NCBI GenBank assembly: GCA_008632985.1
Contig: QPGO01000001.1
Span: 962,404-1,026,403, forward strand
Direction of reading: 5' to 3'
DNA length: 64,000 nucleotides
Source: Psammoneis japonica
Taxonomy: Eukaryota
Below, one piece after another: positions 1 through 56,099 of the stretch. The notes beneath the pieces were generated by a model. It searched no databases and was not told where the DNA came from. It worked only from the letters and a program-made list of their open reading frames with translations. Numbering within the stretch: position 1 is the stretch's first letter; each line of letters starts with the position of its first letter. The position numbers were made by a program, and so were the translations under genes.

Positions 1-299
1 CAGAATGTCACAAGTGTTGACAAAGAGTGCACAGATGTGGCATCTGTGGCCTCACTTCATTTCAATGGAGATGTTGCTGCAACAGTTTGATGAACGGGAG
101 GTCCTCATGTTGGGCAGCATTGCCACATGGACGCAATTGAGCATTTCTTAAGTTGTGCAATTGATGACAAGGATGTGAAGCTGCTGATCACTGCCAAAAC
201 GGTTTGCCATCACACTGCAATGCAACATCAATGGAAGCAAACTTCCAAGCACACCTTCAGCACAGTGATCATTTGAGTGTTGACTCCAATCCCAAAAAG

Positions 300-2620
300 A
301 CTCTCAAAACTGTTGTGAAGGATGTGAAGCGGGGAGGTGCTGTCCGTTTGACAAGAGCTTTTGACTCCATTTCTGCTCAACTGCCATGTGACACCTCACA
401 GGATCATTGACTTTGACCAACCCCACAAGATGCCAAGACCAATTTTTGACAGCTTGTTTTGACCGGAGAAGTGGAGCATGACTGTCAAAGACTGAATGTC
501 CAAGGACACAGAGCCACCCCTGTTGGACGAGAGCACAGAGATGGATCTCATGAAATGGATCTGCAATTTGCACATGTCCTGCAGTGAGGAGGAAATTGTG
601 ATTGGTGACATCAATGTCAGGGGAGCTTCTTGCAATGACAAATGCCCATCCAACTGGTTGCCATGCACACAAGTGTGCAGGCCAGTTTTGGCATTTGCAA
701 ACTGGGAACAACTTTGGGGACAATGCAAACCCCTTGAACTGGCAAGTTGTCACAATGGCTCATCAGCAGTTGTTGCAGACATTGTGGCATTCAGAGGGAG
801 TCATTGGCATGACTGCCTCATTTGTGCCACAAATTTGGTTCTGCCCGGAACCTGGTGATGAGGACATTGCATCTTTTGCACCGGCAATGGCAGACTCCAT
901 CAACAAGGGAGTGTGTGATGAGCACAGCCTCTGAACAGTGCCTCCATGCACACACCATGTTGATGACAATGTGTGTGTGCAGATGTTTGAGTGCACCTCC
1001 CATGAATGCCAACGGCAAGCGCACTGTCACCATTCTGTGCACTCTGTTTGGGCATGCCCTTCACATGGTGGGAAGGGCCTTCGACTCTCGTGCACTAGCT
1101 GTTGGAATGCTTGAAAGCAAAAAGGACCAACTTTTCAAGGCATTGACCACATGGATTGAACATGTGACCGCCTGTGACTTTTGGATGCTGCGGGCCTTAA
1201 CAGGCTGCTCAAGAATCACACAAGATGTGTGCAATGGGTGCACCCACTCTTTTTCACAATGCAGAATGACACACAGGCGGCTTTCAAGCAACACCATCAC
1301 ATCATTCATGATTGGTGGAATGAGGATGTCAAGGCAAAAAGCAAACTCTACACCAATTGCCCAATTCCCAGTGCAAGCAAGTTGATCAAATTGTTGCCAA
1401 GGAGATGGCAGCCCCACTCTGGCACACGCGAGCCAAAATCCACTGTTAGATGAACTTTGGCATTCACTGCACTTGATTCAGAATTGCCTGCAGACTCGTC
1501 CCAAGTCATTCTTGGAATGCATTGGGTTTGTCATCCCAAGAGACCCAGATGTCCGGAGCTGCAGAGATGCAAACATGGATCATGGGGGGGTGGCTTTTGC
1601 CCAACACTCCATTTCTGGTTTGACATGGGATGGAGCCCCACATTTTGCATGGTGTCAGGAATGCTGGGCCATCCACAAAAAAGGGCATCTCCATGTCAAC
1701 CAACAACCAACTGGGGTTCCTCATTGTCACTCTCCAGTTTGCAGGTGCAATGACACGCATTCGAACTGTGACATGGGAGCAAGCAGAAAGCTGTTTTCTG
1801 GATGGGGTCTCCCCCTTGGCCTGTGATGCTCTCCAAATGCAACAACACTGGTTCAGTGAAGTGGAGTGACAAGACCTTCACTGCATTGCTCTTGGCACAG
1901 GCCCTCACTGCCCATTTTTGTGAACTCTTGAAAACTTTGAAGATTGGACAAGATGCTTGGCACCTTGAGGGGATGCTGAACAAATTGGTGGATGCCATCT
2001 TGTGCCAATCTGACTGAGCTCTTCCTCTCTCCACTCGTTGTGCTCAGCTGTGTCAGAAGTGGCCTGTGATGAGGAACTCTGGAGCCATTTTCTCTCAAGT
2101 CTAGAGCTGCTGCAGGGCCTCTTCTGTGCTCTGTTCTCAGTCTCAACAGCTGTTCTGGTTGCAATTCCCAAGAATTTAGGATGCTTTGTTTTCACGCCAA
2201 ATCCATTGCTTCCGGTTTGCCCATGACGTGAATTGGCACAAAGATGACCCTGGCATGACAATGCAGAACCTGCCGCTGACACATTGCCAATGCATGTTGG
2301 CAATCTACATGGTGCACCTTGCACCCAGAAGTGCATTGTTTTGCAAACAGATCAAACTTGATGGGATCAAAAAACACCTGTTTGCAGTCGCAACTTTTTG
2401 TGTGCTTCATTTCTGCAGAAAGAGTTGGGACATTTGCAAGAGCAACCCAATGGACAAAGAATTTTGCCCTGTCCTGAAGGCAAGAGCAACCCAATGGACA
2501 AAGAATTTTGCCCTGTTCTGAAACGGTGTTCAAGCAGATTTGGGATTGTGAAGATGCACCTGACCGTCGGGAGCCTGTGACACCCGAAACAACAATGGAG
2601 CAAATTTGTTGCAGGGAGGA
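300..2620 (+). mobile_element. Decayed tyrosine-recombinase (Ngaro/DIRS-like) retrotransposon fragment: RT/RNase H-like and N-terminal YR-like remnants
   Basis: Broken ORFs include 'QALTAHFCELLKTLKIGQDAWHLEGMLNKLVDAIL' (resembles the DIRS-type RNase H end H.pG..N..aDa) and 'MLAIYMVHLAPRSALFCKQIKLDGIKKHLFAVATF...DRREPVT' (resembles the N-terminal part of the YR ORF). Many stops; TA and CG depleted. Boundaries approximate. Confidence 0.45.
2436..2523. repeat. Tandem duplication, 44-bp period, 2 copies
   Basis: gcaagagcaacccaatggacaaagaattttgccctgt starts at both 2436 and 2480. Confidence 0.9.
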
Positions 2621-2699
2621 GATCATGATGGAAAAAGCACCAGATGGACTCCTGGCAATCCAAGGTGACTGGAGCCAGGGCAGTGTGGGGAACATGCCC

Positions 2700-4290
2700 A
2701 GTCCAAGAATGGGACAAACCTGCAGAAGCCTCAGCAGAACAAAAGGAAGGAGACTGAAGCGTTCTGTTCACCGATGTTTGGATCCAAACCCGGGACAGGA
2801 AGCATCAGACAGGGGTGGATGTTGCCTCCACTCCTCTCACCATTGTTGAGTTTGTGTGGGTCAAATTCTGCATCCAGAAAAATGGGGACAATGGGCAAGA
2901 GATCAAATTCAAGTGCGTGGATGTGCTGACAGCCATGTGCCAGTCTTGGTGCTGCACCCCATGGCTTGAGCGGTCTGCAGGTGGAGAGTCTTGAGAATCT
3001 CAATCTGAACATTTCCTCATGATTCACTTTCATGTCTTTGTGGAATGATGGGGTGGATTTTGAGCAGTGGTGCAGTGAGATGTTCATGTGAGAACATGCA
3101 AGAGCATTTGTTTTGTGACTCTGCACTGCCACAGACTCAATTGGACAAGAGATGGACAGTCCTGCAAATTTTGTTGGGAGAACAACAAAGCTGTTCTTGT
3201 TTTTTCACACACTGGGGACTCAGCAGCCAACACTGGAGGAAACAAGCTCTGCAAAATGATTCTTGATGTTCTCAAGGTTGTGTTCTGGGACAATGTGCAA
3301 ATGAGAGCATTCTTGGAGTTCATGTCAGCAGGGTGGCATTTGTGCTTGGGACCAATGGTGCAAAGTGCAAAGCAAGAAAATGAATCTCAGAGGACAATGA
3401 ATTTGCCCACAGCAGCAGAGAGTTGCTGGCATGCTGAAGGGCACAAGCATGTTGGGGAGTTGAGCATTGAGCATTGGACCAGTGGAAGAAGGATCAGCCC
3501 ACATGCTGCCATGCCCAGTGGATCACCTTGGGTGGTGCTTTCCTTGCTGAAAAGGAAGGAGACTGTGCCAACGTGTCCATGGACAATTGGGGTCACCCAA
3601 TGCTCACAAAAAATTGACGACAACCTGCCCCAGATGGCCCATTGTGTCTCACATTGTGCAGCATCAAGGTCCCATTCAATTCATTTGCTCTGCTGGAGGT
3701 GTCAACAAACAGAAAACCACAGCCATCTTCAACCTTGTGTTGCTCCCAGAGCATGTTCACATCATGTGAATCTCACTCTTGACATCAGCACAGAGCTGAT
3801 CCATGCCACAGGCTTCCTTGGCTTCAGCTCTGCAGCTTCTGATGGCTGCCCAGATTTTTGTCTGGCACCAAGAGTGCCTTTGCTGTCATTGCTTGGCAGG
3901 CTGCTATCCACAGAGGACAAGACTCATTTGCCAAACAGTTTGTGAACATGCGCAATTCTTCCCTGAGCAAGAACCCGCTGGCTTTGCTGTGGCAGAGCAG
4001 CCACCATGACTCCACACAGGCATCTGACCCGACAAGTCCAACACCACTCCTCAACATTTTTCTTGTGATGGTTTCTGTTGCACCACCTGTGATGACAACA
4101 TCTTGAAGCTCCTCCAGCAGTTTGCTGAATTTTTTGTGAAATTGGTCTGCAAGAATTCTTCAATCAGGACATTTTGAGTGCATTGCATCTCAAGATGGGG
4201 CCATTGGTTCTTTCATCAATGTCATCCAGTGTGCAAGCAGCCCACCTTTTTTAACATTCAGAAATGCATTTTGCTGCATCCCACAAGTTT
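2700..4290 (-). mobile_element. Decayed non-LTR retrotransposon RT fragment (CRE-like)
   Basis: ORF 3387..3623(-) 'LFSKESTTQGDPLGMAACGLILLPL' matches the RT motif S.eGv.QGDPL.m..Y.l.l.Pl, with Y replaced by C. Boundaries approximate. Confidence 0.5.
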
Positions 4291-4293
4291 CCT

Positions 4294-5916
4294 CATGGTG
4301 CCGTTCTGTTGAATGTCTTGGCATGCTGCTCTCTGGTGATTTTTCCCTTTGTGAGATGGACTCAAGATGGCTTTCAAGAAGTTGTTCCATCACAAGAATG
4401 AGCATGTTGTGCTTGACCACACTCCAAGTTACATCTGTTTGCCTGGCAAACAGGGTTCTGACATTCTTGGCTCTTTTTGCATTGTGACCCTGCAGCAAAA
4501 CTGCCATTTGGAGTGCAGCAAACCTCTCTGAGCTCCAATTTTATGTCATGGGAATTTCATTTTTGGACACATCAAGCTGATTTTGATCTTTGATCATCTG
4601 AGCAAGAGCAGACACATGAGGACTGAAATCATTGCAAACAATCGTGTTGACATCATTGTTGATTCAACGGACGCTTGTGTCATTTGTCAACGGCTGTGTG
4701 TTCTGCATGAAAGAGCAATTTCTTGGTCGAATGCATAATTTCCTTGTTCTAAAAAACCCGGGTGTGGCGCCCTGGCTGGATTTGGCGCCAAGACTGAACG
4801 ATTCACTGGCCGGGTCGCGCCACAGGATCGATGAAGGGCTTTTTGCCGAGCATTGCTCGGATTTGCCAATCCAGTGTCTCCCTGGGTAGTTCCTGTCCAG
4901 ATTGGTTTGGCTGTGGGACTTCAAGACCAGACAACAAAGAAGACAGATGTGGTCAAGCGTTGGCGGTTCGCAGTGGCACGTGAAAAATGAGCGGTGGAGG
5001 GTGCAGGCGTTCCATCGGAGACTGGTGCAGCCAGTGGAACACGATCTGCGAAGTTGCGAATCGATGATGCCACATTGCATCCACACATGCTCCTGCTGTG
5101 CACTCCAACTACTTGAAAATTACGGACACATCTGTGAGCTGTGTTGTCTGCGCGCTTGTTGTTGTCGACTCTTCCAATTTTGGCTCAGCCAATTGCCAGA
5201 AAAAATGAATGATCATCTGGCGGTTTTCTCCGACCTGCTTTCATCGTCTAATCAATGTTTTGGGAAGTGACCATATGGGAAGACAAGAAAATTCTCACTG
5301 TCATTGTCACAAACTGCCTGCAAACTTGAGCCTTTCGTAATTGTTGCGGTTGTCGTTTGTTTTTACGTCTCTTTTTCCTGCCTCATTCCCACATGTTCAC
5401 AGCAGAAAGTTGCACCCCAACGTCACGTTTTGCGCCACTGGCTGCCAGCCACTAGAGAGGTATTTTAACAGATGACACGGCATTCAATCGTGACGGGATG
5501 CACATGCTGATTCTCACCATGCCCTCGCCAGGCACCACGGCCAAACACCTCCAGCCGCCAGCTCCTTTCATTTCACATTGGAGAGACACCAGTCGGTCAT
5601 TCTCATTGCAACAAGCAACACCATGGTGTCAAACACAACTGGTTTCACAGCACCTGATGGTGCAAACCCCACAAGAGATTTTGGAGCTGAGTTCCGTAAA
5701 CTGTGCAAACCGGTTGACCCTGCCAACCATGGTGAGTTCGAGGGCACAGTTTCAGCTCTGATCCAGGAGGCATCTCTGGATGAATCCGAATGCACCAAGC
5801 GATCTGCTCCAGTGGCTGTTCAGCGTTGTCGTCAAGGGGGGAAGACGTTCATGCTTCATGCTGTCGCCAGCACGCTGGAGCACTGCAAAGGCAACAGGCT
5901 CCCATCAGATACGATG
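4294..5916 (+). repeat. Copy A of a ~1.62-kb direct duplication flanking the Penelope-like element; holds a 3'-truncated, mutated 5' end of the gene at 11647
   Basis: Aligns end to end with 10316-11940 (catggtgccgttctg... to ...gatacgatg); offset 6022-6024. Confidence 0.95.
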
Positions 5917-6354
5917 TTTTGAGTTTTTTTGTTTCACATTTTGAGTTTGTTTACTTGCGCACTTGCTGCAGTAGAGTGTGCTTCTACATCTGACAGCAGC
6001 AACATCAACTCGCTCTTTCTCCAACACCGTTGGAGTTTTTTGAGTTGATGATGCCTCACTCATTCTCATGCGCGCTTCGCGTGCATTCGAGATCTATGAT
6101 CCACACGATTAACTCACCATGCGCACCGCGCACGGGTGGATCTTTCTGATGCGGCTTTTTCAACGCCTGTAACGTCAGCTGCGACGACAGCCGTAGAAAA
6201 ATGCCGATTTCGAATTTTTTAGCTCGAAAAACAGCCGACAACACTGATGAAGCGAAAGCGAAAGCTCACATCATCGAGCTTTGTATGTCAGGCAACTCTC
6301 AACAGATTGCTGTTGCGCCAAAGGCTGTCAGTGCATTGGACAACCCCGAAAACA
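5917..6354 (+). repeat. 5' pseudo-LTR of the Penelope-like element
   Basis: Runs from ttttgagtttttttgtttcac to caaccccgaaaaca; repeated at offset 3963. Confidence 0.9.
6234..6293 (+). ncRNA. Type I hammerhead ribozyme (copy 1)
   Basis: GCC-GACA-ACA | CTGATGA | A-GC-GAAA-GC | GAAA | GCTC-acatcatc-GAGC | TT | TGT-a-TGTC-a-GGC. Conserved core plus stems I, II and III pair. Confidence 0.75.
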
Positions 6355-6374
6355 GTGTGCACAGACTTCCAACA

Positions 6375-7780
6375 ATGACTGCAGCCAGCGCGTCCGCTCC
6401 GACAACCCCACCTGCTCGCAACAGACGAAACAACGCAGCCGCGCGCACCGTGCGATTCGCTGCCGCAGCAGCAGCGACAATGACGGCGCCTGCGGCGCCA
6501 CAGATCTTGGCAGCTAACCAACGTAAGTTGGACAAACTAGCCCCTTGTCGCGAAGCGATCGAGACGCAGCCAACAGGATTCAAGGACATTGTCGAGTCAC
6601 TGGCCACTCGCATGATCACTCAGTGCGGGCTTGTAAAGAGCAGAAAGCTGAGTCCATCAGCTTTCCCCGGCACTGATGACAATCCACACATCCCCAAATG
6701 TTGCAGGCTCAATGTGAACCTCACACATGCGGACCGGCTCAACGATGATGCCACTGCCCAAGAGCTCGTCCAGGAGATGAAAGACCTGGTTGCATGCTTT
6801 GAAAAGGATGCAGCCAAACTGCACACAAGATGGCCTCACGTGAACTTGAGGTTGTGAAAACCAACCGAATACGAGAATTGGTCGAAGCTAGCCTTGTTCT
6901 CTTCCAATTCTACATTGACCATGTAAAAGAGTTCAAAGGCTCTACAGACCCAACAATGCGTCAACTCAGTGGAGTGCTGCTCATGCCCCACTTGTGCGAC
7001 GTGCTGCCATCGAGCTTCCTGAGAGACTGCCTTGAGACTTCTCCCAAAGAAATCATCAAGGAAGTTGAACGCCAGCTTCGACATGAAGGACCCTTCAGTC
7101 CCGAAGACAGCACCCCTCCCTCAACTCAAGAGAGCACCGAAGACGTGCACACACAAGAGGATGCCACGCGCACTCAGGCCGCACTGGCAGCAAACTTGAA
7201 CCCCCTGCTCGAAAGTGAACACGTGAACCACGAACTTTCAACAGGTGAGAAAGTTGTAAAAGAAGAAGTGTTCAAGGAAATGAAACAGTTCTATGAACAA
7301 GTCACCATGCAATTGCAACACGCCCTGGACAAAGAAGAACGATTGAAATCGGTCAACGCCAAGCCAGAGGCAAAGTGGAAACGCTGCAAGAAGGAACAAG
7401 CAGCTGACCTCGTCGCAACAGCTCTTGAAAACGAACCGACAGTTCAATCCCCCGCCCTCGACGAGTTGATCAACAAAAAGATTGACAAAAAAGTCGCAAG
7501 CCTCAAAAAGCTCCACAAGAAGGCAAACCGTTGGCAAAAAAACGACAAGGGCGGTCGGGAAGCCCCACCGGCACGAAAGAACGACGCAGCAAAAGACAAC
7601 GAAATGCAAAAAGGAAAAGGAAAGCGGAAACGCCAACCCCAAGCCTCGAAGACGAATGGGAAACCATCCGCCAAGAGACAAAAGAACGAAGCCAAGAACC
7701 GCCATGGAAAAAGAAAAGGGAATCACGGAGGACAGCACAGAGGCGAGCAAAGAGGCAAGAGAAGCAACAGGCGAAACTAG
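6375..7780 (+). pseudogene. ORF1 of the Penelope-like element (helical/coiled-coil with basic K/R-rich C-terminus), frameshifted near 6830
   Basis: ORFs 6201..6857 and 6830..7780 overlap; heptad-like E/K/Q-rich segment and basic tail; lies directly upstream of the RT. Confidence 0.6.
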
Positions 7781-9794
7781 AGGCGAAACTCCTCTACCAA
7801 CGCACCGAGCTCCCCATCAAAATTGCCGAGAAACAATCGGACCGCCACTGCGTCAGAATCCATGGATTCATGCCAAATCCTGACGCCCCCCTGTGGGAAA
7901 ACGCAGCAACGGCTGTCGGCAAGATGAAAGCTACGGCATGCTTCAACCGCCTGGACAACATGTCTTACCATGACCTCTGTACAAAGCTGCAACCACCCCC
8001 GGGTGCTGGATTACTGTCAGGACTTGGACACAAGTTTTGTGTGGAATCAAGCACCCCGTTCCCACACAACTGCTGAGGCGCACAACGCTTCCGACGAACC
8101 ATGCGTCTGCGGAACTTTGTCGAGAACTCCGAACTCGTAAACGACGAAGACGGATGCAACCCACACCCACACGTCCCCTCTGATTTCGACCCTCCACCGA
8201 TTGAAGACGGGACAATAGAACTTCGAATGATGGACTTTGCAAACAAGACAGACAGAGCCAGTCGAACAGCCAACCGCCAACGACCCCACTTTAATTTGAC
8301 GCCTCAGCAGCATCGAATGCTGCGAACATTGCAAAACGACAGACGATTCGTCGTGTGTCTTATGGACAAGAATCTTGGTCCAGCCATCATGGAGCGCGAA
8401 GTGTGCATGAAACGGGCCCTCAGCGACCACCTGCTCAACCAGAAGAACTGCCAACGCCACACGGAACAAGAAAAGAACACATTTGTGAGAGCAACTAGAA
8501 GACGCCTACGCAACGCATGCCACCTTGCAGCCGACAGCCTCTCTGAAGCGGAAAAAACTTACTTCGAAAGAAGTTTCAAAAAGAAACACCGCACACCACA
8601 GTTCTGCATCACTCCGAAAGTCCACAAAAAACCGTGGACGACACGACCAACAGTGAGCTGCATCAACAGTGAAAATGAAGTGTTTTCAAAATGGTTGGAT
8701 TTCAAAATGAAAGAACTTCTACCCCCATCGCGAACGTACATCCGAGACTCTCACCAAGTCCTCGCCGACTTACGATCACTTGGAAAGCTGCCACCAGATG
8801 CCAAGCCATTCACAGTCGATGCAGCAGGAATGTGTGCCAATGTCAACACCAACCATGCTCTGGAAACATTCCACCGGTGGTTCCTTGAGTGCCCCAATGA
8901 GATGCCAAAAAACTTCCCAGTTGACTTCTTCCTCACCGCACTGGAAATCGTCATGACAAGAAACATCACCCAGTTTGACGACACCTGCTGGCTCCAAATC
9001 GATGGCACAGCCATGGGAACCAGCACAGCCTGTGTGCACGCCACCATGCCAAGGCTCTCCACGAATGCCAAAGTGTGCTGACCCGATTCAACTTGAACCT
9101 GCCCCATTGTGGACGATTCACAGATGACGCACTCGGCGAATGGACAGGCGGTGAAGGTGAAACATGGGAGAAGTTCAAACATGAACTGAATGACTTCGGC
9201 ACCTTGGAATGGGAAACCTCCGAGCTCAGTGACCAAGTTGCATTTCTGGATCTCGATGTCAAGATTGGAGCAAACCGGTGTGTTGAAACAAGAACGCACC
9301 AGAAGGCCATGAACCTGTGCCTCTGCACACCCCCAAGCTCAGCACATCCACCTGGAGCACTGAGAAGCATTGTGCATGGAAACCTTCGGATGCATCGGGC
9401 ACAAAATCCGAACAACAAGGATCACCAAAAAACAGTGGCCCAGTTCTTCAACCGGCTGACAGCGCGAGGCCACAACAGAGAGCACCTCAAGAACCTCTTT
9501 GTGGATGCAGCCGCCACTGTCCACCGGAAAAAGGCCCCATGCTCCAATGTCGCTGACCCATCCAACACTCTTTTCTTTCACCAAGAGTGTCACCCACGCA
9601 GGATGGCTCGCACTGAAACAAGAAGAGCATGTGAAAAAACCTGCGAAGGGCACAGCGGGTTCAACCGGTTGGCAGTGGCGCACTCAAGACCCAAAAATCT
9701 AAGAGACGCCCTCACACGAACACCACCAAAGGAACCCAACGGGCAGCATGCTTCAGACATCATTAAAAAACTCTCTGATGCACCGGAGCTCTGA
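7700..9794 (+). pseudogene. Reverse transcriptase ORF of the Penelope-like element, broken near 8076 and 9075
   Basis: ORFs 7531..8076, 8101..9081 and 9075..9794 carry RT motifs in order (DKNLG, PKVHK, RP.VS, GTAMGT, RFxDD, FLD). Positions normally Tyr read Cys/His. Start approximate. Confidence 0.85.
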
Positions 9795-9879
9795 TTGGCG
9801 ACTCCGTCGCGACGAGTCACCTCCGGCAAAAAACTCAAACGGGCTGCCTGCCGCGCCACGGCGCCACGGCTTGTGCCCG

Positions 9880-10317
9880 TTTTGAGTTTTTTTGTTTCAC
9901 ATTTTGAGCTCATTCACTTGCGTGCTTGCTGCAGTAGAGTGTGCTTCTACATCTGACAGCAGCAACATCAACTCGCTCTTTCTCCAACACCATTGGAGTT
10001 TTTTGAGTTGATGATGCCCCGCTCATTCTCATGCGCGCTTCGCGCGCATTCGAGATCTGTGATCCACACGATTGACTCACCATGCGCACCGCGCACGGGT
10101 GGATCTTTCTGATGCGGCTTTTTCAACGCCTGTAACGTCAGCTGCGACGACAGCCGTAGAAAAATGCCGATTTCGAATTTTTTAGCTCGAAAAACAGCCG
10201 ACAACACTGATGAAGCGAAAGCGAAAGCTCACATCATCGAGCTTTGTATGTCAGGCAACTCTCAACAGATTGCTGTTACGCTGAAGGCTGTTAGCACATT
10301 GGACAACCCCGAAAACA
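9880..10317 (+). repeat. 3' pseudo-LTR of the Penelope-like element
   Basis: Direct repeat of 5917-6354. Confidence 0.9.
10197..10256 (+). ncRNA. Type I hammerhead ribozyme (copy 2)
   Basis: Identical to 6234-6293. Confidence 0.75.
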
Positions 10318-11940
10318 TGGTGCCGTTCTGTTGAATGTCTTGGCATGCTGCTCTCTGGTGATTTTTCCCTTTGTGAGATGTGGACTCAAGATGGCTTTCA
10401 AGAAGTTGTTCCATCACAAGAATGAGCATGTTGTGCTTGACCACACTCCAAGTTACATCTGTTTGCCTGGCAAACAGGGTTCTGACATTCTTGGCTCTTT
10501 TTGCATTGTGACCCTGCAGCAAAACTGCCATTTGGAGTGCAGCAAACCTCTCTGAGCTCCAATTTTGTGTCATGGGAATTTCATTTTTGGACACATCAAG
10601 CTGATTTTGATCTTTGATCATCTGAGCAAGAGCAGACATGTGAGGACTGAAATCATTGTAAACAATCGTGTTGACATCATTGTCGATTCAACGGACGCTT
10701 GTGCCATTTGTCAACGGCTGTGTGTTCCGCATGAAAGAGCAATTTCTTGGTCGAATGCATGATTTCCTTGTTCTAAAAAACCCGGGTGTGGCGCCCTGGC
10801 TGGATTTGGCGCCAAGACTGAACGATTTACTGGCCGGGTCGCGCCACAGGATCGATGAAGGGCTTTTTACCGAGCATTGCTCGGATTTGCCAATCTAGTG
10901 TCTCCCCAGGTAGTTCCTGTCCAGATTGGTTTGGCTGTGGGACTTCAAGACCAGACGACAAAGAAGACAGATGTGGTCAAGCGTTGGCGGTTCGCAGTGG
11001 CACGTGAAAAATGAGCGGTGGAGGGTGCAGGCGTTCCATCGGAGACTGGTGCAGCCAGTGGAACACGATCTGCGAAGTTGCGAATCGATGATGCCACATT
11101 GCATCCATACATGCTCCTACTGTGCACTCTAACTACTTGAAAATTACGGACATATCTATGAGCTGTGTTGTCTGCGCGCTTGTTGTTATCGACTCTTCCA
11201 ATTTTGGCTCAGCCAATTACCAGAAAAAATGAATGATCATCTGGCGGTTTTCTCCGACCTGCTTTCATCGTCTAATCAATGTTTTGGGAAGTGACCATAT
11301 AGGAAGACAAGAAAATTCTTATTATCATTATCATAAACTGCCTGCAAACTTGAGCCTTTCGTAATTATTGCGGTTATCGTTTGTTTTTACGTCTCTTTTT
11401 CCTGCCTCATTCCCACATGTTCACAGTGGAAAGTTGCATTTCAACGTCACGTTTTGCGCTACTAGCTACTAGCTACTAGAGAGGTATTTTAATAGATAAT
11501 ACGGTATTCAATCGTGACGGGATGCACATGCTGATTCTCACCATGCCCTCGCCAGGCGCCACGGCCAAACACCTCCAGCCGCCAGCTCCTTTCATTTCAC
11601 GTTGGAGAGACACCAGTCGGTCATTCTCATTACAACAAGCAACACCATGGTGTCAAACACAACTAGTTTTATAGTACCTGATGGTGCAAACCCCACAAGA
11701 GATTTTGGAGCTGAATTCCGTAAACTATGCAAACCGGTTAACCCTGTTAACCATGGCGAGTTCGAGGGCACAGTTTCAGCTCTGATCGAGGAGGCATCTC
11801 TGGATGAATCCGAATGCACCAAGCGATCTGCTCCAGTGGCTATTCAGCGTTGTCGTCGAGGGGGGAAGACGTTCATGCTTCATGCTGTCGCCAGTATGCT
11901 GGAGCGCTGCAAAGGTAATAGGCTCCCATTAGATACGATG
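10316..11940 (+). repeat. Copy A' of the ~1.62-kb duplication, continuous with the downstream gene
   Basis: Aligns with 4294-5916 and retains most TpA sites that copy A has lost. Confidence 0.95.
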
Positions 11941-13239: not shown

Positions 13240-15599
13240 AGAGTGCGTTGCCGAAAAGTACATAGAGGAGCAGCAAGTTACGGGTGCGCCACCAGCCAAG
13301 AAGGCACGAGCTCCTGATGCCACATAGTGCTTCTATCAACTCAAGTAGCCAGCTACGAGTAGCTAGTAGACGACGTGGTGATAACAATTGTTTGCGTTCT
13401 ACTTTTTTGTTTACATTGTACTTTTTATTTAACCTGAGCAACAAAGTGGATCCAGGACGTCAAGGTGGACTCACTCGTATAATAAGGCATAACAACACCT
13501 CTGCATTTAGTTAGAGGATGGCGCAATCATTTCCCTTGCTGTTTGAAGCATCTGCTTGGCTGTTACAAGTGTTGGGATCGGCAGGGTTTATTTGAGCTCC
13601 TTCCAAGCTGCAGAATGTTGCCACCACCGGCTTCCACATAAAAGAAACCCTCAAGTTTTCCCCGCTCCTTCTTCTCCTGGCCTTCCATGCCACAAAATTG
13701 AGCAATGACTTTGCTGTCCACATGTTCCTTCCAGCTGGCACTGCTTTCGAAAACCTCAACAGTCTGACCCCGACATTCCCTTGCAAGCAATCTAGGCTGT
13801 TCCAACATGTTGACACTCTGATTCACCATTTTGATCTTCTTGTTTGCTGCCAACTCATGGACAGTGCTCACAGTCAAACAAAACACATCTTGAAAGTGGG
13901 AAAACAAGCAATTAACCTCCAATTTTCAAAGTGGGGCACTGAGAGGGATCATGGTGGCAAGAATGTGGCTTGCAATTGTCTGTTCTTCTTCTTTGGCAAT
14001 GGACAGCTGACACACTCTTTGCAAAAACAAGAGTTGGTTGGATGACCCTCTCCCCCTCCGCTGGCAACACAAAGCCACGTTTTTGATCACAACCCGGTCC
14101 AGCACTTGAGGAGGAGTGTGTCCTTGGGCATGTCTGTTCTGTTCTTTAATGTGCCTTCTAAAGTTGTGCAGGCACAGCACATGAGCCAGTCTGATGGAAT
14201 TTGATGCACAAGACAGAAACCCCCACCCTGGGCTTTTGCTCTGCTCAAAAATGCAGCGACCTTCCCTTCAGATCTAAAGAGCCCCTGCAGCTCAAATGTG
14301 CATTGCCATCACATTTGACTGAGCAGCAAAGGCATGAGTGTGGTCAACTTGTCCCAAAGCAAAACCAAGCACATTGTGCTTGAAAAACACGCAAGCAAAA
14401 ACAGACTGTGCTCTCCCCCAATGCCATCTTCTCACCCCTCTTTTGGTCAATGATGATGCCTCAAATGCAAATTTGTGCTTTGTGCTTCTTAAGATGTTCA
14501 CAAGAATGCTGTTTAATCCAATGAGCATCTGATGCTGGACATCATGTTTGTGCTCAAAAGTGCTGAGTCTTTTGGCACTAGAGCGAGCAAAAAAATTTTA
14601 GCGTGCATCAAATGATTGACCATCTTCAATTGTGTCACCTTCTTTTTGAGCACTTTTGAGTTAGAACAACATGAGCTGCAAGCAAACTTTGGTGCCAGCA
14701 GGCATGTCTACATTTTAAATTGGGTGAAGAACTGCATCCTGCAGGGAAACTGCTCAGCAGTTTCAGTGGTTGGTTGCAAAGCCATGCCAGCTGTCCATGG
14801 AATTCTGCAGGAGCCAAAAGGTGCTTCTTGGATGGAATGCTGTGGCAGACACAAGTTGCCGATGGCAGGCTGGCTAAATTGTTGTGCTGATGGTGGAACT
14901 CTCACCACTGAACAAGCATCCATCTTGCACACAATGTGATTGAATTTGTTTTTTTTTTTTTACACAAGTGAGGCAACAACAGCAGGGGCAAACAGCTTGT
15001 TAGAAAATTTCTTGCCCTGTTCAGTGTTTGGTCCAAGAAAGATGCACTCAAGACATGTGTCATGCACGTGTTTGGCACAATGGAGTGAACAGTGGATCAC
15101 TGCTCCACTCATCTTTTTCAGCAGCTCAGTTGGCAAAAACAAGTCTCTCGTGCATTGCATCTCTTGAGGTTGCCAGGAAAACTTGGGGACTCAGCAGTTG
15201 GGCCTGCAGACTCTCCTGTGCCTCTTGTGAATTTGGTTTCAGTGGCAGTCTCATGCACTTGTGAAGGCTTTTGCAATTGCAAATGGTGTGCCCAGATTTT
15301 CAACTGGTGCTGCAGTGTTTCTTGCATCTTTTGGCCAGTGGAAGATGAGCTGATCATTGGAAACTGCTGTTGGCACCAATCAGGTGCTTCTTTGAGTTGA
15401 GGACAGCAGGACTTTTGTGGTGCACATTCATGGAGTTGCACTTCTGTCAAAAAGCACTCAGCCTTGCTTGCAGAATGCCAGGGAATGGCACAGCTCCTGG
15501 GTTCTCCTCAAGAATTTGGGTGTGGCTGTCTCCAGTGACAAAAGTGGCACCCATGCTTGGCCCCAGTCATGCCCTGCAGGCAAAAGGCATTCAACAAAA

Positions 15600-17200
15600 C
15601 CTTGCTGAATTGGAGGCTTGAGTGCTTGGATCCTGGTGTGTGAGACAAATGGGTTGGTCATCTCAATCCAAGCTTTCACCCATCAAATCCACCAATTCAT
15701 TGTCATTGAGCCTTGTTGTTGTTGTCATTGGAGGTTCTTGTTCCATCATTCTTGGCAGTGAGTGTGCCACTTTGCAGTGGCTCTTAAGTGGAGCCAACAA
15801 TGCAAACATTCTGTGACACATTTTCACCATCTTTTTCTCTGTCCAACAATGTGCGTGCACATGCTCTGGTGTCTCTGCTGAGCATGTGTGCTCTGACAGT
15901 CATTGGTTCTTGGACCATTTGGACAGATCCAGCTGATGGTCATCTGCACTTCATTCATGCTGACACTGATGACAGCAGGCAAGGCAAATGTGACATGGGC
16001 ATTGCTTTCCTGGTTCAATCACCACCAGTTCATTGCACTCTTGCTCCATTTTCTGTTTGCCCAAGTTGCAGCTTTTGACTCTTGTCCACATGGCAGGAAC
16101 AAAGAGATTCTTGTGGGCCCATTCAGAAAAGGTTTTTTTTGCTGCCTCATCCTCCACAGCAAGCTGACCTGTTTGCATGGATCTGCACCTTGTGACAAAT
16201 GGACCTGAAGCCAATCTTCTTGTCTTTGTCATTTGCAGGCAAGAACATCCTGATGCTTGAACAAATGCTGGGTGTGCTTGGCTGTTGGCCAACTGGCGCT
16301 CAAACCAAGATGAGCCACCATGCTTGAATAACTCTGCTTGGTTGGCACAGAGCCATTGAGATGTAAATTTCCTTCCTGCTCCAAGACAGCACCTTGCGCA
16401 ACACTTGGGATTCCCACAATTGATGCTTCTTGGTGGCACTTGCAGCTTCAACGCATCTGCCTGGACTGTTGCCTTTGCTGACTCAAAAGCATTGTCCCAC
16501 TCACTCTTGGACTTGGATTCAATCACAGTTCAGAGGCAATTCTGGATTTGTGGGTGGTGCACTGGTCCAAAGGCTTTGTCTGATGGGAGCACTGTCACCC
16601 CTGGGAAGCATGTCATGATTGCTGTCATTGTTCTCACACCCCAATTCTGGGGAACAAACAAAGCCTTGAGTGATGTGTTGGTCTGCAAACACAATTTGGG
16701 TGTGCTGACAATCCATCATGGCTTTATTTTGACCCCTGACAAAAGCATCCATTGGCAGCACTTGTGGGCCTCTTTTGCACACGTGCTCTCTGTCACACAC
16801 TGGACTTTCATTTTGCAATCCCTCACTCATGAGGGCCAACATGTGGCCAACCTTGACAATTGCACTGTCATTTCTGACCATCATGTGGAAAAAGAACGTC
16901 CCAGTTCCCCCAATCACTTCTCATTGCATTTCCACCATCATCATCCAGAAAAGGGCATCAGGATGGCCAGTCTGGTCAAGTTTCAAATGGAAGTCAAGTG
17001 CAAACAGTTGTTTGTTCAGATCTTGCAAAAGGATCTGATTGACCCTCCTTCTTGCATTGTGTTTCTTGGCATTTTTCTTAGATTTGGTCTTGACAGTCAG
17101 AGAGTGGACAGCTGCAACACAGTGGAAGGTGTGAATGCTGCACATCATCCACTGTCACATTGATTCCAACTTCCTCACCAAATGCATTTGACATTGGATG
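15600..17200 (-). mobile_element. Heavily decayed MULE-like DNA transposase remnant
   Basis: Fragments 'QIVFADQHITQ', 'SKSEWDNAFESAK' and 'LHLNGSVPTKQSYSSMVAHLG' resemble the MULE DDE region (D...; ..aEq.hS). Many stops. Confidence 0.35.
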
Positions 17201-17453
17201 ATCAACTGGTGGAGTGTTGTTTGCGCATTTTTGAGAATTTGTTGCAGCATCCATGTGTTGTCAGAAGCTTTCAGTGGTTCATGCACCAAGTGCTGACAAT
17301 CTTTTTGCCACCTTTCAGACATGTCAAAAAGAACAGGGGGTCCCACAATTGTTGTCGCATGACAGCATGGGTGACCACAATTGTGACGGTGTCCACAGCT
17401 GCACTCGACATGTCCAGTGTTGGAACTTCACAGCTTTCCAGCTTGTCTGCGCT

Positions 17454-19357
17454 GGTCAAACCAATTCCAGATCTCACTGCATGGGTTGCAAACACACATC
17501 CAGTGCTGTCACCTTGCTGTTCTTGCACCAATGTTTTGCCTTGGTGCAGAAGTCAAAAATTGAGCAAAAAACTCATGTTCACAATGAAGCTGTGCACATG
17601 AATCCACCACGTCACTTTCAGTCATCAGCAATCTTTCACTGCAACATTGTCTGTCCATCCTCCCAAAGTCACCTTGATGCACCAACACACACCTTCACAC
17701 AAGCTGTCAAACATTGACCCAGTGTGCATTTGTCCAAGGAGGATGACAGTTGTGAACCATGCCACCCCACACCATGCCAACTGCTTCAGCGAGTGAAACC
17801 CATGGCTCTCATCATCCAACTCTGTCATCAAATGATCATTGTCATCCTTGAGCATGGGGCAATTGCTGCTGCTGACAGGCCCATCCTTGTGACATTCTCA
17901 GCTTTTGATCTTCTGTTTCTCTCATTGCACAAAACCAGTGCCTTCAGATTTCTTGTTGAGCCCGCACATGTCCAACACCTGCAGCACCTCTTTGGCCAAC
18001 TTGGAACAGTTTTCCACCCCCCAGTGAAAACTGCTGTTGTGGGTTGTCCAACATGCATCCATGTTCCTTTTGGCATGTCCCTTCCATTGGCAACACAGCC
18101 AACAGCTTGTTCCTCTCTTTCTCCTGGGTGTCATCAGCATCTGTGTTGAACCCATCCCCTTTTTTGGCACTTTCTTCTGGACAACACCACCACAGGATCC
18201 CTCCTCCACCATCTCAACAATGCTCACAAACCAATTGCAAACATCTTTAAGCACCTCTCCACTGTCTTGACAAATGAGCACCAGCTGCTTCCAAGCTTCA
18301 ACTGCTTGAATGTGTGAATGGACTCTCTCTCATTTTGCATCAAACAACATCAACTTGAGAATTTCCAGTGGCACGATTACGTCCCACTCCTTCATGACCC
18401 TTGCAAATCCAACTGTTCCTTCTTCAACCCTGTGTCAAACTGCCTTTGCACACTGTCACATGATTGTGCTAAATTCCTTTGCCTTCTGCATCTCATGGAT
18501 TGCTTCCTGTTTTAAATGGTGGCATGTTGTTCCCCCCAGATCACCTTGTCCTTTTCTGGTGGAGTCACGCTTGACGGAACATCCGGCTCCTTGGGTCAGT
18601 TCTGATCTTTCCTCAGAGACACCAGCATCTGCATTTCTGGTCCAAACATTCTTCCAATGTGCTCACTCATCTTCCTTGTGGTCTCTGTGAAACCATCTGC
18701 TTGTCAGTCCAACTTGGCAATGGCACCACACACCCACTCCTTCAAATCTACAGTGCTTTTGTGCTCAGTTGTTTCTTTGCCCACAGTTGGGTGTCTCCAG
18801 GAAACAACTCCACTGCCCTTTTGTCAGCAGACCCTTGCAGCTTTCTCTCAGCAAGGCCCCACAAGAGATCATCTCTTTGCCAGCCACTCCTTCATTGGAG
18901 CAACAAATCTGTCCCAACTCTTGTCAGTCCAGCAACCTTGAATGTCTTGTGCTCACACTGACCAAGTCTCATGTTCCCATCAACTCTCCAGCCTTTGTTC
19001 AGATTGCTGTCAACTTCCCAGCCTTCACTCAGATTTCCATCAACTTCCCAGCCTTTGTTTGGCTTCCTGTCAACTTCTCAGCCTTCACTCAGATTCCTGT
19101 TGACTTTCCAGCCTTTGTTCAGATTCCCCTTGACTTCACAGCCTTCACTTGGATTCATTCTTGGCTTCCCAGCCAGCCCTTTTTGACTTGTGTGTTGGAG
19201 CTTCATGGCTTTTTGACTTGTCTGCACATGGTCAAACAAATTCCAGATCTCACCACATGGGTTAAAAACACACATTGGGCACTGTCACCTTGCTGTTTGT
19301 CTCATGCCAACAACATGCCACTCTCGTGCAGAAGTCAACAAGTGAGCAAAAGACCCA
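17454..19357. repeat. Imperfect ~125-bp direct repeat pair (17454-17575 and 19230-19357)
   Basis: ggtcaaac.aattccagatctcac..catgggtt..aaacacacat....ctgtcaccttgctgtt...gtgcagaagtcaa.aa.tgagcaaaa present twice. Confidence 0.75.
18978..19156. repeat. 30-bp minisatellite, ~6 units
   Basis: Units resemble caacttcccagcctt(tgt/cac)tcagattcctgt and abut without unique spacers. Confidence 0.85.
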
Positions 19358-21642
19358 CAAAATGGAACTTTGAAGTGTTCATGCACAGAATCTTGTTGCC
19401 CAAGTAAAAGTCATCATTTAAAGTGTCAATGGTTTCAGGGGAAAATGATTCCTTGAGGCGTCAGCGGAGCCAAGAAGAGTGGCAGAAGCACGAGAAAAAA
19501 TCGGCCCAAACCCTGATTTTTATGATTTTTTCTACATAAAAATTCTGTGTGATTTTTGGACCAGTGCACATGGCTCATTGACTTTGGAAAATTTTGAGGC
19601 ATGGATTTGCAGGAACTCTTGTGAGTCCCCATCACTGATGATTGCATGGACTCATTTCTGTGGCCCTGAGTTCTGCCCCAACAAGCTTGGCATCCCTCCT
19701 GAAGAACCCAACAACAAGTCCACACTCACATTCATTTGGGAGGCAAATCTGCAGGATGATGAGTGTCTTCCCTTCTGCACACTCTTGCCACACACCAACC
19801 TTGCCACACACCAACCAACAGAACCATGCAGTTCTTGCAAGCAGCAATTTCTGGTGCAGCTTGGCTTGCATCATGGATCAGTGCACTGAGCTGCACTTGA
19901 CTGCATTGGTCTGATGTTGGCCAAGAGTCACAATCTTGGACTCAACAGTTTAGTCTGTCAAGATGTCAAACTCAACAAAGCCTTTGTTGCAGCTGCATCC
20001 ATTCACCAAGAAGGGGAGCACTGTCACTGTCATTGTCATTCAATGCAACAGACATGTGGTTGACCAAGGTGGGCATCATGTCTTCATCGTCAGCATCTTT
20101 GTCATCACGACACACAAGATCTTGGCAATTTGCATCATCAGGGTCAACAACAGAATTGTTTTTGGCATTGTCTCTGTGTCATCTGCCTGCAGCTCATTTT
20201 TTGTGTTGTGCTCAGTGATGGATGTTGTGACAGCAAGATCCTTTCACACCTTTGAGAGTGGCTGATGACCCTCTTTGGGAGGATGGCTTTTTTGGTGCTT
20301 CAGGAATTTGGATTGGACAGAGTGATGCAGTGAGGTGAATGACACAGGGACTCTCACCTTTCATGCAAGCAGTTGAGCAACTCATTGAAGGAAGACAACT
20401 TGCATGCAGAGACAGCCAACTGCAGTTGGGGCTGAATGCACTGCTCCTGAGACTGAGACAATGTCTGTTTGGTTGTGTGGTGTGCCAGGTGGCAAAGAGT
20501 GCCAGATCCAGTTGATGCAGTGGCACCCATCTGAAAATGAGCTTTTTTGTTTCTTCAGACAGTTGTGGCAGGGACCAAGTGGCATGTCCCCCCTCTTGTG
20601 GATGCATGTGATGTGTGTGAGCCCCACCGCCATGGCCAGACAACAAGCACAAGCACCCATTTTCCAAGCTGCTGAACTTGTGGAACTTGATCATTGGCTG
20701 CAAACAACAACGGTGCTCTTTGCACAGAGGGAGCACCGCTGTGGTGCACCTGTCATTGCTTGGCAATGCACAGCTGTGACTGAGCTTCTTGCCATTGTGC
20801 ATGGAGCAACAGGGCAAATTGCCAAATGTTTGGTGCGGTGGAAATGACTCATTGCCAAACTCTTTTTGCACTCTTCAGCGGGATGGTCTTTGGGTGCTTT
20901 GGCTTGTGTGCACCTTGTGATTGCAGCACTCAAAAATGCCATGACCCTGGTCACCTGCTGTTCATGGCAGCTGTGTTTTGGATGTCCTGTGTCAAGCCAA
21001 GATGTCCTTTGTTGTCAGGGGGGGGGGGGGGGGGGCATCTGAGGGCAAAACTTGACAAGTGTTCCCACCTGGTTCTTTTGTCAATTTGCATGGCCAGCTG
21101 AGATGCTGCCCATGAGCTGCTTTGATGGCCATGTCTGGAGCTCATCAAGAGATTTCTGATTTTTGCTTGACAAACGGGAGGCAGTGAAATCATGTTTGGC
21201 AGGTGAGTGTGCACCAGGTGCAGCAGCAGCAACATCTTAGTGCAAAGTGATGGAGTCATCATGTGATGCAGCGACAGTGCTCAGAAGCATCACCTCTGCA
21301 TGCAAATGACAAAGTAGCAACAACAGAGTGTGAGAAGACACATGCTGGGTTGGCAAACAATGGGGTGAAGCAGAGCTCACTGGCATGACAGCAAATGAGC
21401 CGTCTGGAGCAGCTGGCTGTGTCACAGCGCACCAGGTGGGTTCTCACTCTTTGTTTTACGTACCGACGTGCGACATAGGTGGAATCATAACATTCAGTAA
21501 TGAAGAAATAAAAAAAATGGCAACGGCAAATCGAAAATCGCGGATCGATCGCGTGTTCACCCGGTTCACCCGGTTCACCCGGCATCGGGACGATGTCAGC
21601 CACTCTGTCGACCCTCATGGCTATTGATCTCTACTCCCTTAG

Positions 21643-27400: not shown

Positions 27401-27850
27401 CATCATGATTGACGGCAAACGCACCCGTTTCTGCTGCTTCTAGTTCTTCGAGTTGTCAACAGCATCATTCTCCTGTCCATGAGGCTGTGCTCCAGGAACT
27501 TGGCTTCGAGGAGTTGTGGACTTTTCTGCAGGCGCGTGTTTTTGCTTGAACTCACCAGCAGATGAAGAGATTGCCTGTTCTTGCGTGGGGAGTTGATGAC
27601 TGGATCGGTGCTTCTTCTTCTTCTTCTTTGCTTCTTGGTTCTGGCTGGAGGCAAAGGAATCTTTCATCCGAGACACGTGATGGTCATTTTCTTTCGATTT
27701 CCCCTTGATTTCTTTTTCTTCTTGGCACGAATGCTGCTGCTTCAGTTTCAGTGCCATCGACGTCGTCTCGTTCTCTCTTCTGCCACTCCCATCAAATGCC
27801 TCGTCATCATCCTTGCTGAGCCGTGTCAATCGATTGTCAGAGAGATTCAT
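24451..27850 (-). pseudogene. Single-pass membrane protein with FG-GAP-like beta-propeller repeats; frameshifted and interrupted by a MULE-like insertion
   Basis: TM segment 'CFLALGVLLLAVGLVVVVVSA'; repeats W.QLG..l.G....D.FG.SVSLS..G..vAVGAP spread over ORFs 26406..26747, 25607..26611 and 24451..24666. Confidence 0.75.
24650..25622. mobile_element. Non-autonomous Mutator-like (MULE) element, 973 bp, with 9-bp target-site duplication
   Basis: TSD CATTGAAAG at 24641-24649 and 25623-25631; GGG...CCC ends; imperfect ~45-bp TIRs with repeated ACAGATTA. Removal rejoins 'AIFQ' to 'CNTSKKEWSQ'. Confidence 0.85.
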
Positions 27851-28284
27851 GGTTCTTGCTGCTCAGCTGCACTTCTGACTGTTTGATGCAATGACATGTG
27901 AGACGCAACATGAATGAAGCGACCTGCGGGAAAAAGATTCCAAGACTCGAACACGGCAAACAACAGCTCACTTCCTTTTTTTTTCTGGAAACATTTTTGT
28001 CCTCTTTCAAATCACAATGTTCCTTCCCCTGGAGTGCGGTGTCAGGAACTTCAAGTTGAAGCGTGAGAGCCGGTTGCGCGCATGCCCACAGACAACAGAC
28101 GAACGCTGGAAATCATGCAACACGCACCTCACGATGCCGGGCTGCAAAACAATGAGGATGGTGGAATTTTTTTTGTCGTGTGCTGCTGCTGCATGTGATG
28201 CTTTGCAGGAAACATTGGATTGCAGGCCTCCCCTCTGCCCGTGGGATTTCCTTCCTGCCTTGGCCACCACCCCCCCACTCCTCA

Positions 28285-28552
28285 AGCTGGCCTGTTCCAG
28301 CTCCAGGTGCTCCGCGTGGGTTCGATTCCCATCATTTGGAAATTTGCGCATTCAGCGCAATTGACTTTTTCAAAATCCGTTTTTTGCCAAATCGAAGGGC
28401 AAGTGTGCACTTTGCATGCATTTTTGGGTGTGCACTTGCCTTTTGATTTTCGAAACGATCAAAGTTGAAGGAGTTGTTTGCACCAAACTGCGCAGAAAAT
28501 CGGCCTCTCGCGTGATGAAAAGTGGATCACCTGGAGCTGGAACAGGCCAGCT
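28285..28552. mobile_element. MITE, 268 bp, perfect 25-bp terminal inverted repeat
   Basis: agctggcctgttccagctccaggtg (28285-28309) and cacctggagctggaacaggccagct (28528-28552). Confidence 0.85.
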
Positions 28553-36780: not shown

Positions 36781-37002
36781 ATCCGATCGGTGCAACACAA
36801 AAAGATTTGCGCGGTGACACAGTCAATTGTGTTCACAGTTGTGGTGAGATTCCTGATTCCCCACTCAAAGCACGTTCACGCACACGGCTCACGGCCGGCT
36901 CACGGCTCACCGTACCGTACTGGAGTTTTCTCTCGCACAAACTTACTGTACTGTAGCTTCAACAACAGCAACACGACACAAACAACAACGACAACAACAA
37001 CC

Positions 37003-55830: not shown

Positions 55831-56099
55831 CCGGACCCGCATGTGCATTCTTGGCAAACAACAGCTGGAAATGCATTTCGCATCATTTGGTCCTTTTCCA
55901 TCAACTGCGCTGCATTGCTTCATTGGTTCATTCATTGCATCCCAACAGTGTTGCACAATGACAACAACATGGGACGATTCTTCAATCTGCAGCCATTGGG
56001 TCTGTCTGTCACTGCTGTTGTCAGGCCTTCACATTGCTGCGGCATGGCATCTGCCGTGCTGCCCTCCTCTGACAGCAAACGCTGCAAAACAGGGAAGAT

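Follow-up and report, generated by a model that had tools for sequence, protein, structure and literature searches.

We analyzed 64,000 nucleotides from the diatom Psammoneis japonica (contig QPGO01000001.1 of assembly GCA_008632985.1, positions 962,404 to 1,026,403 of the forward strand), referred to here as the window. It contains host genes, a degenerate Penelope-like retroelement with a reverse transcriptase (RT) reading frame, a 1.6-kb duplication, and long tracts in which the dinucleotide TpA is scarce. In a 1-kb profile, TpA is distributed bimodally across the window. Delimiting blocks in 500-base bins by the observed/expected (o/e) ratio of TA gave seven depleted blocks totaling 36.5 of 64 kb (57%), with TA o/e of 0.05–0.15 and CA/TG o/e of 1.2–1.9. 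The remaining 27.5 kb shows TA o/e of 0.50–0.67 and CG o/e of 0.91–0.99, apart from one lone 500-base bin with TA at 0.31. That bin sits within the first depleted domain (1..11000), which comprises an older CpG-poor repeat (1-4290), one copy of the duplication, the retroelement and an old depleted flank; TA o/e is 0.08 in its left part (1-6500) and 0.15 in its right part (7001-11000), and CG o/e is 0.38 and 0.83, respectively. No CA/TG microsatellites were found in the depleted blocks, which consist of complex sequence.

The RT reading frame lies at 7831..9794 on the forward strand. Five RT peptides had been read here by an initial annotation made from the sequence alone (FCITPKVHK, DDTCWLQ, ACVHATM, HCGRFTDD and AHSRPKNLRD), and all five are present, in the stop-to-stop frames 8077-9081 and 8979-9794. 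A word-indexed search returned 83 longer homologs of about 600–750 amino acids (best identity 49%), and an exhaustive HMMER search returned 4293 at E ≤ 0.001. We built a profile from 76 intact homologs and aligned it to the window frames; it matched frame 1 at 7831-9048 with 462 bits and frame 0 at 9054-9782 with 240 bits, and the reading frame closes with a stop at 9792-9794. Two lesions interrupt it. An in-frame TGA at 8074..8076 (+) corresponds to a CGA changed by CpG-to-TpG, C being present at 8074 in other copies of the element found in the public sequencing run X1/X2. A frameshift at 9049..9053 (+), where the profile switches frame (9048/9054), reflects the loss of one A after 9049 that is present in two X1 contigs. 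Judged by this stop and this one-base loss, the window copy of the element is dead.

The precomputed families of the homologs are PF28514, which the 83 longer homologs carry, and PF26215, with PF00078 in distant members. Searching our local copy of Pfam-A with the window RT pieces gave no family, and the intact close homologs P0001, P0010 and P0045 likewise gave no local match; PF28514 and PF26215 are missing from the local copy, which leaves intact homologs blank too, and the blank result for the window RT is not due to mutation. Locally, RVT_1 was found only in the distant members P0078 and P0080. An atlas search places the window RT in DUF8422/RVT_1 clusters at a score of 0.96, and a profile of 34 homologs had no match among PDB sequences. 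With Pfam, no GIY-YIG domain was detected in the window, P0001, P0010 or P0045, and the only trace, in P0080 (E = 2.4e-4), fell below the cut-off. The lack of this domain in the window RT fits the endonuclease-less kind.

Direct repeats of the kind that bounds Penelope-like elements, resembling pseudo-long terminal repeats, flank the element on the forward strand at 5916..6360 and 9879..10323 (95.5% identity over 445 bases), and an X1 contig joining 10317 to 6369 indicates that other copies are arranged head to tail. The nearest kind, we presume, is the Athena/Coprina type of endonuclease-deficient Penelope-like element, which shares with the window element an RT of ∼650 amino acids, an N-terminal D-K-x-x-G, the lack of GIY-YIG, flanking direct repeats and head-to-tail copies. 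It differs in that no telomeric context is visible here and a scan of the whole window against Rfam at gathering thresholds gave no match at all, hence no hammerhead ribozyme, although mutation could have destroyed one. The element is therefore best called an endonuclease-less Penelope-like element, a name that draws in part on known motifs. Within it (6360-9879), TpA depletion is uneven: 18 TpA survive in 7257-8771, and 8772-9699 contains no TpA. The 5′ part has a CG o/e of ∼0.9 and the 3′ part one of ∼0.6. The 1.6-kb direct duplication brackets the element together with its 445-base repeats, in the manner of an outsized target-site duplication, and one X1 contig skips from 4710 to 10805.

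To describe what the RT has lost, we compared the window with its homologs at 228 conserved columns, defined as those in which one residue occurs in at least 60% of homologs. Tyrosine is kept at 2 of 14 conserved Tyr columns; nine of the others read Cys and three read His. Isoleucine is also kept at 2 of 14 (the rest are six Val, three Thr, two Met and one Glu), and leucine at 28 of 39, with five Pro and one Ser among the changes. Other conserved residues are mostly intact (e.g. His 8/8, Phe 15/17). In a leave-one-out control across the 76 homologs, Cys or His occupies 30 of 1132 cells (2.7%) at conserved Tyr columns, and the least conservative homolog still retains Tyr at 8 of 15. Finding Cys or His at 12 or more of 14 Tyr columns by chance has P = 1e-17. 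Overall composition shows the same shift: Tyr makes up 0.5% of the window RT versus 4.2% of the homologs (z = –7.2), Cys 3.9% versus 1.4% (z = 6.8), and Tyr reaches at least 1.9% in every one of the 232 homologs retrieved. The invariant tyrosines of a 34-sequence alignment (Y224, Y367 and Y531 of P0001), which we place at window codons 8404, 8833 and 9324, all read Cys. The replacement of Tyr by Cys and His is thus confirmed as real and far beyond chance.

The initial annotation had attributed such changes (Tyr to Cys/His, Ile to Thr/Met) to the conversion of TpA to CpA or TpG. Both types are borne out, and Leu to Pro/Ser can be added to them; that intact homologs might themselves carry Cys or His at these columns is countered by the 2.7% figure. 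Its reference to a YxDD motif did not hold, as the box in this RT family is R-x-I-D-D, of which the window retains F and DD, with Ile replaced by Thr.

The direction of change can be read from the homologs. Among 58 mismatches in conserved columns, 27 revert to the consensus by a single CA-to-TA or TG-to-TA change (CA 11, TG 16), and 15 need two or more changes. Of 1575 available non-synonymous single changes, 94 restore TA, and 27 of these 94 recover the consensus, compared to 16 of the 1481 others (Fisher P = 2e-24); by class, the latter are 3 of 85 CG-restoring changes, 5 of 275 other transitions and 8 of 1121 transversions. Back-mutation, the check suggested by the initial annotation, was run site by site, scoring every possible single change against the profile and counting an improvement if it exceeded 0.5 bit. 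CA/TG-to-TA changes raise the fit: TG>TA leads (38 of 105 improved) and CA>TA comes fifth (31 of 127), with most classes at ∼5–15%. As a composition control we used two distant relatives of the element (47–51% amino acid identity), all that a metagenome scan yielded. Their TA o/e is 0.80–0.81 and their CG o/e 0.94–0.95, so a scarcity of TA is not inherent to the element family.

The contigs of run X1/X2 include element copies that are less mutated, and in this run the depth over the element is 178–524 compared to about 60 in flanking DNA. Among the best 40 of 227 differences, 24 have CA (11) or TG (13) in the window where the other copy has TA, 9 have CA/TG in the window versus CG, 3 are reverses and 4 are of other kinds. 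Besides carrying CGA in place of the TGA at 8074 and the extra A whose loss shifts the frame, these copies restore four Tyr codons (8155, 8170, 8605 and 9037), two Leu codons (8167 and 8725) and, at 9120, the Ile codon just before the DD box.

Could an assembly or sequencing-chemistry artefact have converted bases in repeats? Nothing specific speaks for this, beyond the fact that the stretch is present in the runs of one study only. X1 contigs reproduce the depleted single-copy blocks with 0–3 differences per 0.5–1.9 kb, and the pattern is context-specific and codon-consistent with the homologs. One caveat is that X1 may be the assembly's own source, so its agreement is weak independent support. 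Even so, we give an artefact almost no credence.

The duplication offers a comparison within the window itself. The first copy (4294..5916, +) and the second (10316..11940, +) are 95.9% identical. Forty of their 65 mismatches have TA in the second copy versus CA (22) or TG (18) in the first, and 2 are the reverse; 8 have CG in the second versus CA/TG in the first, with 1 reverse, and 14 are of other kinds. T-to-C changes outside TpA are a minority (7 versus 2). The second copy has normal TpA from about 11100, as seen in the 1-kb profile, and runs into an open frame (11518-12621). Its stretch 11101-11940 contains 47 TpA, 36 of which are changed to CA/TG in the corresponding stretch of the first copy, 5084-5916, with none of 11 changed in the opposite direction. 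Over the same stretch, CA/TG replaces 5 of 37 CpG, and mismatches occur at 8 of 669 other sites. These counts correspond to rate constants for TpA, CpG and other sites of about 1.45 : 0.145 : 0.012. Elsewhere in the pair, TA is scarce in either copy and only 2 sites are discordant (CA versus TG), indicating that TpA loss there predates the duplication. The view that TA is the ancestral state, put forward by the initial annotation, is therefore upheld by the homologs, by the duplicate and by the less-mutated copies.

An account without hypermutation would hold that the blocks are TA-poor by origin or selection, through element composition or avoidance of TA signals. TpA is indeed mildly low everywhere in the window (o/e of 0.5–0.7 in the gene islands). 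However, invariant residues of the catalytic core have been lost from a frame that also carries a stop and a frameshift, the relatives have TA o/e of 0.80 and normal Tyr content, TA is found at these sites in other copies of the same organism, and the same 840 bases exist within the window in a TA-normal and a TA-poor version. These data make an origin by composition or selection extremely improbable.

The mutated stretch (5084-5916) lies between the old repeat and the retroelement, and the spared stretch (11101-11940) adjoins the open frame 11518-12621. We infer that position in a silent domain, rather than sequence, may decide the fate of a given stretch. Elsewhere in the window, two tandem open frames (39277-40347 and 40694-41771) that are 76% identical in DNA have normal TpA and CpG. 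Duplication at this level of identity does not attract the process.

A second possibility is that copies were born mutated, through editing of RNA or cDNA by a deaminase (ADAR/ADAT- or APOBEC-like) during retrotransposition. Element copies do differ in their degree of mutation, and ADAR-type enzymes favor a 5′ U, as stated in the Discussion of a preprint on the chlorarachniophyte Bigelowiella natans (bioRxiv 10.64898/2026.01.13.699255). Yet the changes are strand-symmetric, with CA:TG of 22:18 in the duplicate, 11:13 in the copies from the run and 11:16 at the protein level, and the non-element flank 5084-5916 is mutated to an equal degree (36 of 47 TpA). Depletion also covers a host-type FG-GAP paralog and long blocks in which no retroelement is recognizable. 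Moreover, the window and X1 differ at TpA or CpG steps in single-copy depleted DNA at 126-3906. Because the changes are symmetric and reach a non-element flank, we regard editing during retrotransposition as improbable. The differences listed at 126-3906 number seven, with CA/TG in one sequence versus CG (5) or TA (2) in the other, and hint at two processes that are recent, or still segregating.

Loss of CpG accompanies loss of TpA. It is confined to the TpA-depleted blocks, where CG o/e ranges from 0.83 in the element to 0.12 in 13501-21500, compared to 0.91–0.99 in the gene islands; the window contains no block that is CpG-poor and TpA-normal. Rates in the duplicate pair put CpG decay ∼10 times below TpA loss and ∼12 times above change at other sites. 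According to a report on the diatom Phaeodactylum (PMC12344493), 5-methylcytosine (5mC) is limited to transposons. Decay of 5mC in methylated transposons would share with the window the loss of CpG to TpG/CpA in the same repeat blocks and its direction (8 versus 1). However, it covers only the CpG part, and TpA loss here is about 10 times faster. To our knowledge, TpA loss has no link to cytosine methylation. The depleted domains may be 5mC-marked heterochromatin, and the Phaeodactylum finding is in keeping with the CpG loss here.

The sequence around the TpA step also appears to matter. Compared to their share in normal DNA, surviving TpA are enriched 4 times for TTAA and 2.6 times for CTAA/TTAG, and reduced to 0.08 times for ATAT and 0.17 times for ATAC/GTAT. 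In the duplicate, adenines were changed in 15 of 26 cases when the 3′ neighbor was T, 10 of 25 when it was C, 8 of 27 when it was G and 7 of 30 when it was A. From this, the target seems to extend beyond the dinucleotide TpA.

The reading we favor, and consider probable, is that a DNA-level hypermutation acting after integration on silenced, repeat-rich domains converts TpA to TpG and CpA. In this process, A:T would be changed to G:C at the palindromic TpA step on either strand, ∼100 times faster than other sites change and ∼10 times faster than CpG decays in the same domains, so that almost no TpA would be left, with the sequence otherwise still readable. Codons lost from genes would be TAY (Tyr), ATA (Ile), TTA/CTA (Leu) and TAA/TAG; those gained would specify Cys/His, Thr/Met, Ser/Pro and Gln/Trp/TGA, and the RT would be killed. 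Targeting would be by position, the same 840 bases being mutated between repeats and spared beside a gene. The agent would presumably be an enzyme that works on the DNA of silent chromatin. U naturally precedes the target A of tRNA wobble-adenosine deaminases. The likeliest candidate would be an ADAT2/TadA-type adenine deaminase that attacks DNA in a 5′-TA context, as proposed for B. natans.

Alternatively, the chemistry could involve thymine: oxidation of T in TpA by a TET/JBP-type enzyme would produce 5-hydroxymethyl- or 5-formyluracil, and mispairing of these bases with G would lead to T-to-C changes. Oxidized thymines do mispair with G, and TpA-biased thymine modification occurs in some protists. 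As TpA is palindromic, A-to-G on one strand equals T-to-C on the other in sequence data, and the link to CpG-losing domains would fit an enzyme family with 5mC among its substrates. On the other side, the only published proposal favors an ADAT2-like adenine deaminase. We consider thymine chemistry unlikely, though less so than editing during retrotransposition.

Several observations weigh against TpA hypermutation of silenced domains as we describe it. In the pair of 445-base repeats there is no TA bias: 5 of 20 mismatches involve TA, in both directions. Purifying selection on a promoter or gene start could in part explain the sparing of 11101-11940. In the site-by-site scoring, GT>AT (17 of 52), GC>AC (28 of 96) and GC>GT (19 of 77) are also raised, and therefore part of the divergence reflects a broader A:T-to-G:C drift or a composition effect of the lineage. 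The copy differences are the 40 best supported of 227, from a run that may be the assembly's own sample. Finally, although the polarity, dinucleotide specificity, strand symmetry, regional pattern and relative rates of the change are established, all support for the process in this organism comes from comparing sequences.

A literature search found TpA-to-TpG/CpA hypermutation described only in the B. natans preprint, and no relevant diatom paper. That study (Mettrop et al., 2026; bioRxiv 10.64898/2026.01.13.699255) reports TpA hypermutation of integrated giant-virus and virophage DNA, drawing on mutation-accumulation lines, 124 TpA-poor clusters and an ADAT2-like candidate, with de novo mutations in culture at ∼1000 times background. 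Its main text contains no mention of CpG, tyrosine, Penelope, retrotransposon or stop codon. The two systems share changes that are almost only TpA to TpG/CpA, on both strands and confined to regions of foreign or repeated DNA, as well as a long-term mark in which TpA is low and CpA+TpG high, in clusters. Among the TpA-poor genes of B. natans, RT and DDE families are overrepresented, and here too an RT lies in depleted DNA. The hosts differ, B. natans being a member of the Rhizaria and the present organism a diatom (Stramenopiles). Depletion reaches TA o/e of 0.05–0.15 over 57% of the window, compared to a Rho of 0.45 in the nucleocytoplasmic large DNA virus region of B. natans. The targets here are a Penelope-like retroelement, a duplicated host flank and an FG-GAP paralog rather than giant-virus and virophage DNA, and the window shows a nested CpG decay and a 3′-neighbor preference, CpG going unmentioned in the B. 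natans main text. De novo mutations belong to the B. natans study, whereas ours is a comparison of sequences. We conclude that the window probably holds a diatom instance of a kind of hypermutation that has been described once, very recently.

Repeat-induced point mutation (RIP) of ascomycetes is similar in that dinucleotide-specific transitions inactivate repeats and leave a compositional scar. RIP changes C to T at CpA, giving TpA and lowering GC, and it mutates both members of a duplication. The window runs the opposite way, with TpA depleted and 40 versus 2 changes toward CA/TG. In addition, one member of a 96%-identical pair was changed here (36 changes versus 0 of 11), and the 76%-identical tandem pair is untouched. 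Hyper-editing by ADAR and APOBEC in animals likewise produces clusters of deaminase-type transitions that disable mobile or viral sequences, ADAR favoring a 5′ U. However, these enzymes act on RNA or single-stranded cDNA in a strand-asymmetric manner, in contrast to the symmetric changes that extend here into non-element DNA.

It is a serious possibility, held at slightly below even confidence, that diatoms possess a position-guided genome defense in which two dinucleotide transitions converge on CpA/TpG: a fast one at TpA, ∼100 times background, hottest at 5′-TAT/TAC and coldest at 5′-TAA, and a roughly ten-fold slower one at CpG. This defense would be the same as the chlorarachniophyte process or convergent with it. 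RIP-like mutational genome defense has been deemed a specialty of fungi, and a TpA-directed process that raises GC was first reported in 2026, in a single rhizarian alga. If the proposal is true, TpA hypermutation would be the analog of fungal RIP throughout the SAR (stramenopile, alveolate and rhizarian) supergroup, whether ancient or recurrent, and it would hit any DNA inside a domain, host-derived duplicates included, rather than act by sequence homology. A near-saturated signature in a diatom would mean that the process extends far beyond one species, into an ecologically dominant and genetically tractable group. One sequence with two fates in two places is a natural experiment, and argues for targeting of a positional, chromatin-type nature over homology sensing. 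The tie to CpG-losing domains would make the process testable against the transposon-restricted 5mC of diatoms.

Hypermutation of this type would also affect annotation, as the elements would lose Tyr, Ile and TAA/TAG, give rise to overlapping Cys/His-rich open frames and escape homology searches. The initial annotation had proposed that erasure of stops explains the many spurious Cys/His-rich frames. TAA and TAG together occur at 34 per kb in normal DNA (946 per 27.5 kb) versus 7.5 per kb in depleted DNA (274 per 36.5 kb), and open stretches of at least 100 amino acids at 22.2 versus 37.8 per 10 kb. Six-frame composition in depleted versus normal DNA is 6.2% versus 4.0% for Cys, 5.2% versus 3.6% for His and 0.2% versus 2.3% for Tyr. 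However, TGA rises from 38 per kb (1046) to 49 per kb (1776), and total stop density falls only from 36.2 to 28.1 per 1000 positions. Because TGA rises, stop erasure is partial; the loss of TAA/TAG and the gain in open stretches stand, and the proposal as worded was overstated.

Two further examples in that annotation could not be confirmed. A supposed copia RNase H (35805-36326, –) gave no match in Pfam up to E = 10, and a homolog search with its 174-residue open reading frame (ORF) found none. A supposed tyrosine recombinase (58198-58668, +, with its catalytic Tyr at ∼58290) was likewise blank in Pfam to E = 10, and a 95-residue ORF upstream of the supposed Tyr scored 0.80 in the atlas search, which is chance level, with unrelated clusters. 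Extending Pfam to E = 10 or E = 1 over 13 and 55 ORFs of the two blocks gave nothing meaningful. For both, a by-eye likeness of short motifs is what remains. The idea that the process inactivates RTs and tyrosine recombinases holds for the Penelope-like copy, with its invariant Tyr changed to Cys, its stop and its frameshift, and is unsupported for the recombinase example.

The other depleted blocks are as follows. The block at 13501..21500 is a repeat depleted in both TpA and CpG, with o/e of 0.08 for TA, 0.12 for CG, 1.89 for CA and 1.77 for TG and no Pfam family. That at 27001..30000 shows partial CpG loss (TA 0.12, CG 0.64). The block with the unconfirmed RNase H (34501..37000; TA 0.10, CG 0.43) yielded no family; another lies at 42501..45000 (TA 0.09, CG 0.42). 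The block at 53001..63000 (TA 0.05, CG 0.21) holds the unconfirmed recombinase and the FG-GAP paralog. Pfam applied to 150 long ORFs of the window found only host-gene families and FG-GAP, and among the depleted-block ORFs scanned there was no transposon-type family, the only match above cut-off being FG-GAP_2 on the paralog.

All recognizable host genes lie in normal stretches: those for porphobilinogen deaminase (PBGD), Peptidase_S15, a SPOUT methyltransferase, Med26/TFIIS and an FG-GAP protein. The PBGD frame is 85–92% identical to nearly all of 120 proteins listed, one full-length match being at 71%, and all 11 of the listed matches that name an organism are diatoms. This single host gene assigns the window to a diatom, and on its strength Bigelowiella was rejected as the source. 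RNA data containing the stretch were absent from the listed sequencing runs.

The FG-GAP paralog (about 53723-55799, +) is pseudogene-like, with in-frame stops. It is joined by a tblastx chain to the normal gene at 24520-27055 (–), with ∼40–72% amino acid identity per segment, and matches FG-GAP_2 at E = 1.6e-8. Its location inside a depleted block indicates that the process is not limited to transposon genes. By eye, and without computation, about ten Tyr of the normal gene meet no Tyr in the paralog, and several meet Cys or His. The 5′ end of the normal gene may itself lie inside a depleted domain. In the region 27443-29132, the depleted block starts directly upstream of this gene, and an open frame at 27443-27862 (–) continues the gene's frame across one stop.

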